A DNA stretch of 64,000 bases from Escherichia coli (GCF_044647545.1 NZ_CP172818.1), one strand, 5' to 3'; shown: positions 40,533 to 45,113, counted from the first letter of the stretch. Numbers and translations: made by a program. Notes: generated from the letters alone by a model not told the origin.

Positions 40533-41138
40533 ATGACGCTCTACCAGATAAAACCGCTCTTTCAGTCGCTGTTAAGGCCGACGATGTTTTGGCTTTATAA
40601 GCACCACGTTACAGCGAATCACATCACTCTTGCTGCACTGGCGCTTTCTCTTCTTACCGGATTGCTGTTGATGTTGGTGGCACAACCCATCCTCTTTTTG
40701 CTATTGCCTATCGTGCTTTTTATCCGTATGGCGCTCAATGCGCTGGATGGCATGTTGGCGCGTGAGTGCAATCAGCAAACACGTCTGGGGGAGATTTTGA
40801 ATGAAACTGGCGATGTTATTTCCGATATTGCGCTCTATTTACCGTTTTTATTTTTACCGGAAAGTAACCCATCACTCGTAATACTCATGTTATTTTGCAC
40901 CATATTGACTGAGTTTTGTGGTTTACTCGCGCAGACGATTAACGGTATTCGCAGTTTTGCCGGTCCATTTGGCAAAAGCGATCGCGCGTTAATATTTGGT
41001 CTGTGGGGGCTAGCCGTTGCCATTTATCCACAGTGGATGCAATGGAATAATCTTTTATGGGGCATTGCTTCAATTCTGCTTATCTGGACTGCGATTAATC
41101 GTTGTCGGAGTGTGCTCCTGATGAGTGCTGAAAGATAA
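40533..41138 (+). CDS. ynbA: CDP-alcohol phosphatidyltransferase-family inner-membrane protein, 201 aa
   Basis: Contains the D-G-x2-A-R...G-x3-D-x3-D signature (LDGMLARECNQQTRLGEILNETGDVISD); multiple TM segments. Confidence 0.85.
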   Translation: MTLYQIKPLFQSLLRPTMFWLYKHHVTANHITLAALALSLLTGLLLMLVAQPILFLLLPIVLFIRMALNALDGMLARECNQQTRLGEILNETGDVISDIALYLPFLFLPESNPSLVILMLFCTILTEFCGLLAQTINGIRSFAGPFGKSDRALIFGLWGLAVAIYPQWMQWNNLLWGIASILLIWTAINRCRSVLLMSAER

Positions 41139-42034
41139 TGATGGAAAAATCTCTGGCAACACTTTTCGCGTTGTTAATTTTAGCAACGCTGATAAACCGT
41201 TTTCGGGTATGGCGGTTACCGGAGAGAAAAGGGGATGAAGTTACATTACGTATTCGTACCTGGTGGGGCATCGTCATTTGTTTTTCACTGGTGATTTCAG
41301 GTCCACGCTGGATGACGTTGACGTTTTTTGCGCTGATAAGTTTTCTGGCATTGAAAGAATATTGTACGCTTATATCCGTACATTTTCCGCGTTGGTTATA
41401 TTGGGGTATTCCTCTTAACTATTTGCTTATCGGTCATAATTGCTTTGAGCTGTTTCTGTTATTTATACCTTTGGCTGGGTTTCTGATATTAGCCACCTGG
41501 CAAGTTTTTGTGGGTGACCCCTCCGGTTTTCTGCATACAGTGAGCGCCATTTTTTGGGGCTGGATAATGACCGTTTTCGCCTTGAGTCATGCCGCCTGGT
41601 TATTAATGTTGCCAACCATAAATATCCAGGGCGAGGCGTTACTGGTGTTATTTCTTTTGGCATTAACCGAGTCAAACGATATTGCACAGTATTTATGGGG
41701 AAAATCCTGCGGCAGAAGAAAAGTGGTCCCCAAAGTCAGCCCGGGAAAAACGCTGGAAGGTCTGGTGGGGGGCGTAATCACCACCATGATTGCGTCACTA
41801 ATTATTGGACCGTTGCTGACACCGCTAAATACATTACAGGCATTATTAGCGGGTTTGTTAATTGGTATTAGTGGTTTTTGCGGCGATGTAGTGATGTCAG
41901 CCATCAAACGAGATATTGGTGTTAAAGATAGTGGAAAACTATTACCAGGACATGGCGGACTCCTTGACAGGATTGACTCATTAATTTTCACCGCTCCGGT
42001 ATTTTTTTATTTTATTCGCTACTGCTGTTACTGA
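41138..42034 (+). CDS. ynbB: CdsA-like phosphatidate cytidylyltransferase-family membrane protein, 298 aa
   Basis: Polytopic membrane ORF that I recognise as the CdsA-paralogous YnbB; start overlaps ynbA stop (TAATG). Confidence 0.85.
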   Translation: MMEKSLATLFALLILATLINRFRVWRLPERKGDEVTLRIRTWWGIVICFSLVISGPRWMTLTFFALISFLALKEYCTLISVHFPRWLYWGIPLNYLLIGHNCFELFLLFIPLAGFLILATWQVFVGDPSGFLHTVSAIFWGWIMTVFALSHAAWLLMLPTINIQGEALLVLFLLALTESNDIAQYLWGKSCGRRKVVPKVSPGKTLEGLVGGVITTMIASLIIGPLLTPLNTLQALLAGLLIGISGFCGDVVMSAIKRDIGVKDSGKLLPGHGGLLDRIDSLIFTAPVFFYFIRYCCY

Positions 42035-42049
42035 AGGAAAATAGAGAAA

Positions 42050-43807
42050 ATGGAAAATTCACGCATCCCTGGGGAACATTTTTTTACCACCAGTGATAAT
42101 ACAGCGTTGTTTTATCGGCACTGGCCCACTTTACAGCCGGGTGCGAAAAAGGTCATCGTCTTATTTCATCGTGGCCATGAACATTCTGGTCGTCTACAAC
42201 ATATCGTTGATGAACTGACAATGCCAGATACTGCTTTTTATGCCTGGGATGCCCGAGGGCATGGAAAAACGTCAGGGCCGCGTGGTTATAGCCCATCTCT
42301 TGCGCGTTCAGTGCAGGATGTCGATGAATTTGTCCGTTTTGCTGCCAGCGACAGCCAGGTTGGACTGGAAGAGGTGGTTGTGATCGCGCAAAGCGTCGGC
42401 GCAGTGCTGGTTGCCACATGGGTTCATGATTATGCGCCTGCTATTCGCGGGCTGGTGCTGGCTTCTCCGGCCTTTAAGGTTAAATTGTATGTGCCGCTGG
42501 CACGTCCTGCGCTGGCGTTATGGCATCGTCTGCGTGGTCTGTTTTTTATTAATTCCTATGTGAAAGGACGCTATTTGACCCACGATCGGCAACGGGTGGC
42601 GAGTTTCAATAATGATCCGCTGATCACACGGGCGATTGCCGTTAATATCTTGCTCGATCTTTATAAAACGTCTGAACGTATTGTTAGCGATGCGGCGGCG
42701 ATTACGCTCCCCACGCAACTTCTGATATCAGGCGATGACTATGTGGTGCATCGTCAACCGCAGATTGATTTTTATCAGAGATTACGTAGCCCTCTGAAAG
42801 AGCTGCATCTGCTGCCAGGCTTTTATCACGACACGTTGGGTGAAGAGAACAGGGCGCAGGCATTTGAAAAAATGCAAAGCTTTATTAGTCGTTTATATGC
42901 TAACAAGTCACAAAAATTTGATTATCAGCATGAAGACCGCACTGGACCATCAGCGGATCGCTGGCGGCTCCTTTCAGGTGGACCCGTGCCATTATCGCCG
43001 GTTGATTTGGCGTATCGCTTTATGCGTAAAGCGATGAAATTGTTCGGGACGCACTCTGCGGGCCTGCATCTCGGAATGAGCACCGGCTTTGATTCAGGCA
43101 GTTCGCTGGATTATGTCTATCAAAATCAACCGCAAGGTAGTAACGCATTCGGGCGCTTAATCGACAAAATCTACCTGAACAGTGTTGGCTGGCGCGGTAT
43201 TCGCCAGCGCAAAACCCATTTACAAATACTGATTAAACAAGCCGTTGCCGATCTCCACGCCAAAGGTTTAGCCGTCCGCGTGGTTGACATTGCCGCAGGG
43301 CATGGGCGCTATGTACTGGATGCGCTGGCAAACGAGCCTGCCGTAAGCGATATTTTGTTACGTGATTACAGCGAGTTAAATGTTGCACAGGGGCAAGAGA
43401 TGATTGCTCAACGGGGAATGTCTGGGCGGGTGCGTTTTGAACAGGGCGATGCGTTTAACCCGGAGGAACTCAGCGCGTTAACTCCGCGGCCTACGCTGGC
43501 GATTGTCTCTGGCCTGTATGAGCTTTTTCCCGAAAATGAGCAGGTAAAAAACTCCCTCGCAGGTCTTGCCAATGCCATCGAACCGGGTGGCATTCTCATC
43601 TACACCGGGCAGCCGTGGCACCCACAACTGGAGCTGATTGCCGGGGTGTTAACCAGTCATAAAGATGGTAAACCGTGGGTAATGCGCGTGCGTTCTCAAG
43701 GAGAGATGGATTCGCTCGTGCATGATGCCGGATTTGATAAATGCACACAACGGATTGATGAGTGGGGCATTTTTACGGTTTCGATGGCGGTGCGTCGTGA
43801 TAACTGA
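42050..43807 (+). CDS. ynbC: alpha/beta-hydrolase fused to a SAM-dependent methyltransferase, 585 aa
   Basis: N-terminal hydrolase with nucleophile elbow (IAQSVGA); C-terminal part with methyltransferase motif I ([14 protein letters not shown]). Confidence 0.85.
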
Positions 43808-43820
43808 ACGCCGGAACGTA

Positions 43821-45113
43821 TTGCTACAAGGAGCTGGCTGGTTATTGTTGCTGGCCCCGTTTTTCTTCTTCACCTATGGATTTCTTAATCAGTTCACCGC
43901 GACTCAGGATCTTAACAACCATGATATCCCCAGTCAGGTATTCGGTTGGGAAACGGCGATCCCTTTTCTTCCCTGGACTATTGTTCCTTACTGGAGTCTG
44001 GATCTTATATATGGATTTTCGCTGTTCATTTGTAGCTCGACATTCGAACAGCGCCGACTGGTTCACCGGCTTATTCTGGCAACGGTAATGGCCTGCTGCG
44101 GTTTTTTTCTCTATCCGCTGAAGTTTAGTTTTATCCGTCCTGAAGTGAGTGGGGTGACAGGATGGCTATTTTCGCAACTTGAACTGTTTGATCTGCCTTA
44201 TAACCAGTCTCCTTCGCTGCATATTATTCTCTGCTGGCTACTTTGGCGTCACTTTCGTCAGCATCTGGCTGTGAGGTGGCGTAAAGTCTGCGGCGGATGG
44301 TTTTTACTCATCGCCATTTCGACGCTGACGACCTGGCAGCATCATTTTATTGATGTCATCACAGGGCTGGCAGTAGGTATGTTAATTGACTGGATGGTGC
44401 CCGTCGACCGTCGTTGGAATTATCAGAAACCTGATCAACGTCGAATCAAAATAGCACTGCCATATGTCGTAGGCGCGTGCTCGTGCATTGTGTTGATGGA
44501 GCTAATGATAATGCTTCAGTTATGGTGGTCAGTCTGGTTATGTTGGCCAGTATTATCGCTATTCATCATTGGTCGTGGGTACGGTGGGCTTGGCGCGATA
44601 ACAACAGGGAAAGATAGTCAGGGGAAACTCCCGCCCGCCGTTTACTGGCTGACATTGCCCTGGCGTATCGGGATGTGGCTGTCTATGCGTTGGTTTTGTC
44701 TTCGCCTGGAGCCGGTGAGCAAAATTACTGCTGGTGTTTATTTAGGGGCGTTTCCACGACATATTCCGGCACAGAATGCGGTTCTGGACGTCACCTTTGA
44801 ATTCCCTCGCGGACGAGCCACAAAAGATCAACTCTATTTTTGTGTACCGATGCTGGATCTGGTGGTTCCGGAAGAGGGGGAGCTCCGACAGGCCGTGGCG
44901 ATGTTGGAAACATTACGCGAAGAGCAAGGCGGCGTTCTGGTCCATTGCGCGTTGGGATTATCGCGCAGTGCGCTGGTGGTGGCGGCATGGCTGTTATGTT
45001 ACGGACATTGTAAAACCGTTGATGAAGCGATTAGTTATATTCGAGCCAGACGCTCGCGGATTGTGCTTAAGGAAGAGCACAAAGCGATGCTGAAATTATG
45101 GGAAAACAGGTAA
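43821..45113 (+). CDS. ynbD: membrane domain fused to a dual-specificity/tyrosine phosphatase domain, about 430 aa
   Basis: ORF 43722-45113 overlaps ynbC; start placed at in-frame TTG 43821 to give the 430 aa I remember; C-terminal CX5R phosphatase P-loop ([10 protein letters not shown]) visible; N-terminal hydrophobic segments. Confidence 0.75.

Follow-up and report, generated by a model that had tools for sequence, protein, structure and literature searches.

The ynbABCD operon of Escherichia coli as a candidate remnant of a widespread six-gene phospholipid cluster

Work on bacterial phospholipid synthesis takes Escherichia coli as its reference organism, yet this species carries what looks like a complete second pathway whose product has not been seen. 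The question raised by this pathway is what it might make, and whether the genes that E. coli retains are the whole of it. The genes in question form the operon ynbABCD, which lies at positions 40533–45113 of a 64,000-nucleotide stretch of E. coli DNA (GCF_044647545.1, NZ_CP172818.1), referred to here as the window. A first-pass annotation had described four tightly coupled genes on the same strand; the coordinates and junctions agree with that description, and the four plus-strand open reading frames (ORFs), like the megablast matches, correspond to ynbA, ynbB, ynbC and ynbD. We tentatively read ynbABCD as what remains in Escherichia of a widespread cluster of six genes, one that may make, and then use, a specialised glycerophospholipid of low abundance. 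A literature search found no paper that defines a ynbABCD lipid or that gives a role to YnbA, YnbC or YnbD, which bears out the earlier statement that the product lipid is undefined, and searches on PF12147/Methyltransf_20 and on the combined domain set returned no result. The same annotation had called the system incompletely described, and this holds for the product, but YnbB, the ynbA promoter and YnbD already have published work. It had also noted, correctly, that the genes are long annotated; since genes and domains are known and YnbB is partly characterised, the finding is in itself no discovery. What is added here is the Asn-Asp-Asn-Asp signature of YnbA, a YnbD that resembles sphingomyelin synthases (SMS) and is predicted to be two-sided, a modular six-gene cluster with gene fusions, and the loss of two of its genes in Escherichia.

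A modular cluster and its reduced copy in Escherichia

The family of YnbA, the first protein of the operon, extends far beyond the enteric bacteria. A homologue search of 1.84 billion representative proteins gave 781 clusters at E ≤1e-10, and a scan of one genome per species located a YnbA-family gene in at least 592 species. Carriers include Enterobacterales, Pasteurellaceae, the Pseudomonas syringae group, Rhizobium, Neisseria and Campylobacter, as well as Variovorax, Methylococcales, Bacteroidetes and Calditrichia. Gene neighbourhoods were mapped at 80 loci, all retrieved through YnbA, with about 4 kb on either side of each cluster. Six genes recur, encoding YnbA, YnbB, a 214-residue acyltransferase of the PlsC/Aas type, YnbC, YnbD and a small membrane protein that comes after YnbD; ORF clustering detected no conserved neighbour beyond these six at the 80 loci. 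The small membrane protein is present after YnbD in 27 of the 40 loci that contain YnbD. It occurs in two forms, which profile comparison unites in one family (97% probability, E 1.7e-11), and NCBIfam holds no family for it.

Composition was counted at the 57 loci with full flanks. YnbA, YnbB, the acyltransferase, YnbC and YnbD are found together in 26 of these, and YnbA, YnbB and the acyltransferase by themselves in 18. Eight loci have YnbA, YnbC and YnbD, two have YnbA alone, and single loci have YnbA, YnbB and YnbC, the same three with the acyltransferase, or the E. coli set of YnbA, YnbB, YnbC and YnbD. Gene order differs by lineage (A-B-acyltransferase-C-D, A-C-D-x-acyltransferase-B, or D-C divergent from A), and fusions of YnbA to YnbC and of YnbA to the acyltransferase were found. 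Variable order, fusions and co-occurrence are strong signs that the proteins cooperate, and that they do so as two modules, one made up of YnbA, YnbB and the lysolipid acyltransferase and the other of YnbC, YnbD and the small membrane protein. A chance arrangement is rejected, as the same genes occur together in many phyla, in other orders and as fusions.

Two of the mapped loci have peculiarities of their own. The Vibrio fluvialis cluster (L004, 6980–12420; L005, 344–5784) adjoins a resolvase gene and looks like a mobile copy. It gave a first impression of lacking ynbB, which was rejected: a 130-residue ORF joins the N-terminus of YnbB to the C-terminus of the acyltransferase by an internal deletion. 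In Haemophilus sputorum a second, short phosphatase-domain match (L054, 15114–15308; 46% identity) lies between ynbD and the acyltransferase gene; it may represent either a fragment that was duplicated or a small phosphatase gene in its own right.

The copy in E. coli is a reduced one. At the same slot, flanked by ydbH-ynbE-ydbL and azoR-hrpA, Salmonella bongori has the order A-B-acyltransferase-C-D-small protein, whereas E. coli and a cryptic Escherichia lineage have A-B-C-D only. A tblastn search of the window finds neither the acyltransferase nor the small protein (best E >1), so both are absent and not merely unannotated; E. coli ynbABCD is thus a reduced copy of the six-gene cluster, Escherichia having lost these two components. 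Of 5426 complete E. coli genomes, 4768 have the operon (4283 of them at 80% or more of its length) and 658 lack it; in about 485 more it is partial. In NZ_CP178552.1 and NZ_AP027865.1 the match is split by an insertion at which IS3-family or IS30 transposase genes are annotated, and other strains lack ynbA and ynbB or have internal deletions. The four genes that remain are nonetheless under purifying selection: their ORFs are intact in the window, and comparison with K-12 gives ratios of nonsynonymous to synonymous substitution (dN/dS) of 0.18, 0.24, 0.16 and 0.32 from ynbA to ynbD.

The genes upstream of the slot encode a YdbH family protein, a YnbE family lipoprotein and a YdbL family protein. 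They directly precede the cluster in S. bongori (L089, 3697–6855), and in E. coli (window, about 34000–35799) a variable region separates them from the ynb genes. We take YdbH to be an AsmA-like protein implicated in phospholipid transport. This neighbourhood is seen in close relatives only, so it may be inherited synteny and not a functional link.

The four proteins and their locus

YnbA (40533–41138, plus strand) belongs to a distinct clade of the cytidine diphosphate (CDP)-alcohol phosphatidyltransferases, matching Pfam PF01066 (CDP-OH_P_transf) at 2.8e-9. Compared with the PDB, the family profile finds the phosphatidylinositol-phosphate (PIP) synthase PgsA1 of Mycobacterium tuberculosis as its best match (1.4e-15, nearly full length), and PIP synthases (1.4e-15 to 7e-11) are the closest to it among solved structures. 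The NCBIfam families that YnbA matches best are those of archaetidylinositol-phosphate (AIP) synthase (2.9e-20; 72.9 bits, cut-off 180) and PIP synthase (2.2e-11; 43.8 bits, cut-off 170); it falls below both cut-offs, and also below that of PgsA, the phosphatidylglycerophosphate (PGP) synthase (7e-7; 29.9 bits, cut-off 109.1). The first-pass annotation had read a canonical G-x3-D-x3-D in this protein, and here it was mistaken: the signature is N-x2-D-G-x2-A-R-x8-G-x3-N-x3-D-x3-D, numbered N69-x2-D72-G-x2-A-R77-x8-G86-x3-N90-x3-D94-x3-D98. Among 114 full-length representatives of about 40–55% identity, N69 and N90 are each kept in 113, as is G73; D72, G86, D94 and D98 are invariant, and so is the A of D-G-x2-A-R. 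The four-Asp signature of the CDP-alcohol phosphatidyltransferases is therefore not found in YnbA, which has Asn in place of the first and third metal-binding Asp; PgsA1 and CEPT1, when aligned with it, carry Asp at both places. In PgsA1, D68 and D89 bind two Mg ions, D89 bridging them, and D93 is the catalytic base (PMC6506517). N69 and N90 align with D68 and D89, and therefore the base would be kept and two metal ligands neutralised, a change of the metal site that, judged from the alignment, defines the family.

The acceptor side of the active site is also informative. In PgsA1, R155 and R195 hold the acceptor phosphate, and R94 is essential and conserved in users of inositol phosphate (PMC6506517). 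The invariant R151 and R190 of YnbA align with R155 and R195, and a hydrophobic residue aligns with R94, which suggests an acceptor that is anionic, probably phosphorylated, and bound otherwise than inositol phosphate. That the product is an inositol lipid was considered too, but given a low rank, there being neither an inositol-phosphate synthase among the neighbours nor the Arg specific for inositol phosphate.

YnbB (41138–42034, plus strand) is a paralogue of the CDP-diacylglycerol synthase CdsA. It matches Pfam PF01148 (CTP_transf_1) at 6e-69, carries the C-terminal CdsA signature (S254..K257-R258..K263-D264..H272-G-G..D277-R278-x-D280), conserved in 53 homologues, and with 109 bits falls short of the CdsA equivalog cut-off of 385, as expected of a paralogue. 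YnbB makes CDP-diacylglycerol, its overproduction raises the level of the glycolipid MPIase (membrane protein integrase), and in CdsA-depleted cells it restores MPIase but not bulk phospholipid (PMC6362211, PMC7018664). The gene is dispensable, CdsA alone being enough to keep MPIase unchanged in a knockout (PMC6362211); it is cold-induced together with cdsA (PMC11413397), and phosphoglyceride-linked enterobacterial common antigen is made without need for it. According to the literature, YnbB's N-terminal half limits its capacity for bulk synthesis. Residue 85, within this half, is Asp in at least 95% of the 53 homologues and Arg in E. coli.

YnbC (42050–43807, plus strand) joins an alpha/beta hydrolase (about 42143–42847; Hydrolase_4, PF12146, 1e-67) to a class I S-adenosylmethionine (SAM)-dependent methyltransferase (about 42872–43795; Methyltransf_20, PF12147, 2e-152). 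In the PDB the hydrolase domain matches monoacylglycerol lipases (1e-15), and in 38 homologues both its triad Ser115/Asp230/His260 (at least 95%) and the methyltransferase motif I, D413-x-A-x-G-x-G-R-Y, are conserved. The second domain has a mean column identity of 65%, and its AlphaFold2 model shows a Rossmann methyltransferase fold with a predicted local distance difference test score of 91.7; profile match, motif I and fold alike place it in class I. BioC and BioH put on a methyl ester and later remove it, and by analogy YnbC could mask and unmask an acidic group. A transposon insertion in ynbC altered polyphosphate as well as where a group II intron protein is localised, and polar effects may be the cause.

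YnbD (43797–45113, plus strand) had been described as a membrane domain fused to a CX5R phosphatase. Both domains are there, but the membrane part proves to be a second catalytic domain, with a PAP2 fold. The eight-helix PAP2-type domain spans about 43821–44705 and the CX5R dual-specificity phosphatase domain about 44736–45107; Pfam finds DSPc (PF00782) at 3e-26 and, weakly, PAP2_3 at 2.4e-4. Pfam thus upholds all the domains named in the first-pass annotation (CDP-OH_P_transf, CTP_transf_1, Hydrolase_4, Methyltransf_20 and DSPc), and the motifs that it quoted for YnbC and YnbD are present in the translations. The N-terminal domain has the fold, the C2 His and the C3 His...Asp of the PAP2 superfamily, and its predicted fold is nearest to the SMS-related protein SMSr and to Aur1, the alignments covering about 190 residues as opposed to about 145–150 for phosphatases. 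Scores were 14.7 and 14.0 for human SMSr (188–189 residues) and 13.2 for yeast Aur1 (194), followed by LpxE (11.5; 145), E. coli PgpB (11.4; 149) and Bacillus subtilis PgpB (11.1; 146); Foldseek also ranks SMSr at the top, as a weak match. Across 38 homologues there is no variation in P-S-L-H134 or in H174-H175-x2-D178, and Val replaces the canonical C3 Arg in 36 of the 38 (Thr in the E. coli protein). At C1 the Lys varies (R/Q/K), with a spacing shorter than K-x6-R-P, and the phosphatase signature of the PgpB/LpxE type is not found. These motifs seem to fit the head-group-transferase branch better than the phosphatase branch, without proving transfer.

Counts of Lys and Arg in the loops predict for YnbD an N-terminus inside, eight helices and a C-terminus inside. 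The PAP2 motifs fall in loops poor in Lys and Arg, on the predicted periplasmic side, and the CX5R domain is predicted by the positive-inside rule to be cytoplasmic, thus placing the two catalytic domains on opposite faces of the membrane. The latter domain has the C-x5-R loop and a general-acid Asp, with C376, R382, S383 and D346 invariant in the 38 homologues, and PTPMT1 is a weak PDB match (0.0037). YnbD is recognised as a fourth PAP2 protein of E. coli, and its overexpression complements neither undecaprenyl pyrophosphate (C55-PP) phosphatase mutants nor PGP phosphatase mutants (PMC7413402); a list of candidate genes for the fitness of uropathogenic E. coli during systemic infection also includes ynbD. 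Residues 208–427 (window, about 44442–45101) match positions 3–232 of the 546-residue NCBIfam PRK12361 'hypothetical protein' at 3.4e-28, and the module of two helices plus phosphatase therefore also occurs in a longer protein family.

At the level of the locus, megablast identifies the region as the annotated E. coli ynbA, ynbB, ynbC and ynbD, flanked by ydbD and the convergent azoR, with 100% identity to several E. coli strains and 96.9% to K-12. The genes ynbA and ynbB overlap by 1 nucleotide (TAATG), and ynbB and ynbC are separated by a 15-nucleotide spacer with AGGA inside. The junction of ynbC and ynbD depends on the start codon chosen: GTG at 43797, as in the K-12 RefSeq annotation, gives an overlap of 11 nucleotides, and TTG at 43821, as in another RefSeq annotation, gives a spacer of 13. 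The 11-nucleotide overlap is also seen in the orthologues of S. bongori and the cryptic Escherichia lineage. A third candidate start, ATG at 43722, would produce an overlap of 86 nucleotides (candidates within 43722–43823).

The AT-rich, 170-nucleotide region between ydbD and ynbA (40363–40532, plus strand) is where the literature places the ynbA promoter. BglJ-RcsB activates this promoter, and relief of H-NS repression has been proposed as one mechanism at some BglJ-RcsB target loci (PMC3950696); ynbABCD is normally silent in E. coli. Scans for consensus promoters and terminators over 40300–45250 gave counts equal to shuffle expectation and are uninformative on internal signals. Between the convergent ynbD and azoR, at 45123–45152, two perfectly matched 11-bp arms (GATGTGGACTG ... 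CAGTCCACATC) form an inverted repeat around an 8-nucleotide loop; neither strand's copy is followed by a T-run, and the terminator scan did not report it. The G+C (GC) content is 40–45% over ydbD, ynbA and ynbB (window 38000–42000), against 50–55% on both sides, and about 44% over ynbA and ynbB, which would be consistent with a foreign origin and silencing by H-NS. Farther upstream, at 35970–36329, the RefSeq annotation of an identical strain has two pseudogene fragments (a partial helix-turn-helix gene and a partial paaX) and then an intact paaY, so most of the phenylacetate (paa) operon of K-12 is missing here. The paa stretch is a region of heterogeneity (PMC4951805).

A putative pathway and the rival explanations

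In the reading that we favour, the pathway would begin on the cytoplasmic face of the membrane, where YnbB, whose activity is shown in the literature, would provide a dedicated pool of CDP-diacylglycerol. YnbA would then join this to an anionic, probably phosphorylated alcohol (X), giving phosphatidyl-X-phosphate, and the cytoplasmic CX5R domain of YnbD would remove the phosphate in parallel to the PGP and PIP phosphatases. The SAM methyltransferase of YnbC might methylate the head group or an intermediate, and its lipase-like domain might remove an ester, either acyl or methyl. Once the lipid has flipped, YnbD's PAP2 domain, which resembles SMS and Aur1 and is predicted to face the periplasm, would act on the phospho-head group, which could pass to another envelope acceptor or be cleaved, with release of diacylglycerol. 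In complete clusters the PlsC/Aas-like acyltransferase may feed or recycle the lipid backbone and the small membrane protein may accompany YnbD. The catalytic residues of every ynb domain are conserved across 38–114 homologues. The scheme of the first-pass annotation survives in part, in that a CDP-diacylglycerol-dependent head-group route stays the best reading; its linear order, in which the lipid is methylated and then dephosphorylated, is incomplete because the PAP2 active site of YnbD is predicted to lie opposite its phosphatase. A bolder version, which we regard as doubtful, would make the Asn-Asp-Asn-Asp family of YnbA an unrecognised and widespread class of phospholipid synthase with an uncatalogued, possibly methylated head group, with YnbD working on two sides of the membrane and the lipid acting as a head-group carrier and not as a structural component.

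Several points weigh against such a pathway. A lipid product is yet to be observed, and X, the alcohol, is undefined. ORF clustering of the 80 loci, with their flanks of about 4 kb, revealed no conserved gene for head-group supply such as an inositol-phosphate synthase, and the 18 of 57 loci with only YnbA, YnbB and the acyltransferase have no phosphatase, and hence the data do not demand a phosphorylated intermediate. The essential R94 of PgsA1 aligns with position 95 of YnbA, which is Val, Ile or Leu across the family, and with Asn at two of the four metal-binding Asp positions catalysis by YnbA, by two metals or at all, is putative. Sequence and fold comparisons give no hint of the substrate of the YnbC methyltransferase, and the topology of YnbD is a prediction. 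Finally, with two components of the cluster absent, E. coli may differ in product from the bacteria that have complete clusters.

Among the rival explanations, the work on YnbB makes it natural to ask whether the operon is a back-up for MPIase synthesis, in which YnbB would make CDP-diacylglycerol and YnbA, rather than YnbB, would add N-acetylglucosamine (GlcNAc)-1-phosphate to yield GlcNAc-PP-diacylglycerol, the PAP2 domain of YnbD then handling the pyrophosphate lipid. We consider this unlikely. The conversion of CDP-diacylglycerol and R-O-P to a pyrophosphate lipid and cytidine monophosphate is chemistry of the CDP-alcohol-transferase type, many PAP2 enzymes act on pyrophosphate lipids, and a phosphate as nucleophile could explain the less acidic, Asn-containing site of YnbA. 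Overproduced YnbB raises MPIase and, on CdsA depletion, restores it but not bulk phospholipid (PMC6362211, PMC7018664), ynbB is cold-induced along with cdsA, and the assay of Compound I synthesis used membrane vesicles and not pure enzyme (PMC6362211). However, a ynbB knockout leaves the MPIase level the same, with CdsA alone sufficient, and no paper was found that ties ynbA, ynbC or ynbD to MPIase. ORF clustering of the 80 loci found no glycosyltransferase in the cluster, which also occurs in methanotrophs, Bacteroidetes and Calditrichia, none of them known to have lipids like MPIase. In YnbA, the distal anion site with the conserved R151 and R190 agrees with a phosphate that lies apart from the hydroxyl that reacts and not with a nucleophilic phosphate, and the methyltransferase and hydrolase would be left without a role. 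The last difficulty also confronts the improbable view that the genes are redundant housekeeping paralogues from which no new class of lipid would arise, YnbA serving for PGP synthesis or as a cardiolipin synthase of the eukaryotic type and YnbD for the dephosphorylation of PGP: a conserved methyltransferase, a lipase domain and an SMS-like YnbD fold are unexplained by it. The set of a CdsA-like protein, a PgsA-like protein and a phosphatase does mirror CdsA-PgsA-PgpABC, PgsA is detectable as a relative of YnbA (7e-7), and PTPMT1, a PGP phosphatase of the same fold, is the weak PDB match of the YnbD phosphatase domain (0.0037). Overexpressed YnbD, though, rescues neither the temperature-sensitive pgpA pgpB pgpC strain nor the C55-PP phosphatase mutants (PMC7413402), YnbB is no substitute for CdsA in bulk lipids, and YnbA, at 29.9 against 109 bits for PgsA, is closer to the PIP and AIP synthases. 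The simple PGP-phosphatase and PgsA-paralogue readings were accordingly ranked low, on the published failure of complementation and the scores below cut-off.

The reduced state of the operon raises a different doubt, namely that in Escherichia it is a silenced, horizontally acquired remnant, productless because two components were lost. The acyltransferase and small protein that Escherichia lacks are present in the slot of S. bongori, GC content is 44% over ynbA and ynbB, and the ynbA promoter needs BglJ-RcsB, with relief from H-NS discussed for some of its targets (PMC3950696). In addition, the operon is gone from 658 of the 5426 E. coli genomes and partial in about 485, some with IS3 or IS30, and no growth phenotype is reported for ynbB or ynbD knockouts (PMC6362211, PMC7413402). 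This explanation too has little probability in our view, since the four ORFs are intact with dN/dS of 0.16–0.32 between divergent E. coli lineages, every catalytic residue is kept, YnbB is active on expression and cold-induced, and ynbD figures in the list of candidate fitness genes for systemic infection by uropathogenic E. coli. Moreover, eight other lineages have A-C-D without an adjacent ynbB or acyltransferase gene, so housekeeping enzymes may supply those steps. Salvage or remodelling of exogenous or damaged lipids, in which the lipase and two phosphatase-type domains would degrade and the acyltransferase, YnbB and YnbA would rebuild lipids of the host type, seems to us quite improbable: a conserved SAM methyltransferase fused to the lipase and a dedicated, divergent head-group transferase are unexplained, free-living methanotrophs and marine bacteria also carry the cluster, and ORF clustering of the 80 loci found no conserved transporter in it. 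What speaks for salvage is the likeness of the YnbC hydrolase domain to monoacylglycerol lipases and of the acyltransferase to Aas-type lysophospholipid acyltransferases, and the many host-associated carriers (Pasteurellaceae, Neisseria, Campylobacter and bee-gut symbionts).

The favoured reading, that of a remnant of a lipid-making cluster, offers several handles: the change of the metal site in YnbA, the predicted two-sided YnbD with its resemblance to the eukaryotic sphingomyelin and inositol phosphorylceramide (IPC) synthases, and the truncation of the cluster in E. coli. The complete six-gene versions, as in S. bongori, Citrobacter and Hafnia, are better starting points for lipidomics than E. 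coli. The locus also bears on which enzyme makes the pyrophosphate-linked precursor of MPIase, YnbA adjoining YnbB, one of the two enzymes implicated. With carriers in at least 592 species from several phyla, the cluster is widespread enough that knowing its product would close a gap reaching far outside E. coli.

Comparison with known systems

The GlcNAc-PP-diacylglycerol route to MPIase touches the operon directly, YnbB being one of the two enzymes experimentally tied to synthesis of this precursor (PMC6362211). It differs in that YnbB is the only ynb protein linked to it, ynbB is dispensable, and the ynb cluster extends far beyond the Enterobacterales. The CdsA-PgsA-PgpA/B/C pathway and the mitochondrial PGS1-PTPMT1 pathway share with the proposed one the succession of a CDP-diacylglycerol synthase, a CDP-alcohol transferase that uses a phosphorylated alcohol, and a phosphatase. 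PTPMT1 shows that a dual-specificity-phosphatase fold is able to dephosphorylate a phospholipid head group. In contrast to the CdsA-PgsA-Pgp proteins, YnbD does not complement the loss of PGP phosphatase, YnbB does not carry out bulk synthesis and YnbA lies below the PgsA cut-off; that pathway, in turn, has no counterpart to the methyltransferase, lipase and SMS-like domains of the ynb proteins. The N-terminal domain of YnbD shares with SMS, SMSr and Aur1 a sequence identity of only about 12%, with part of the C1 motif (R/K106-P107) kept, and YnbD differs from them by its fused cytoplasmic phosphatase, its role as transferase or hydrolase being putative.

The closest characterised system with the same logic is BT_1522–BT_1526 of Bacteroides thetaiotaomicron, which encodes a PIP synthase, a PIP phosphatase, an Aur1-like IPC synthase and an inositol-phosphate synthase (PMC9246714). 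In both cases a CDP-alcohol phosphatidyltransferase, a dedicated phosphatase and an Aur1/PAP2-type protein that moves, or in YnbD might move, a phospho-head group are found in one cluster. The ynb cluster, however, has no inositol-phosphate synthase nearby and YnbA lacks the Arg specific for inositol phosphate; BT_1523 has the canonical Asp motif, whereas in YnbA two of the four Asp are replaced by Asn; and the ynb phosphatase is a CX5R fold fused to a PAP2 domain, while that of Bacteroides is PgpA-like. To our knowledge, E. coli makes no ceramide that could serve as acceptor, which is a further difference from the Bacteroides system. Beyond the shared set, the ynb cluster adds a lipase-methyltransferase, a CDP-diacylglycerol synthase of its own and an acyltransferase.

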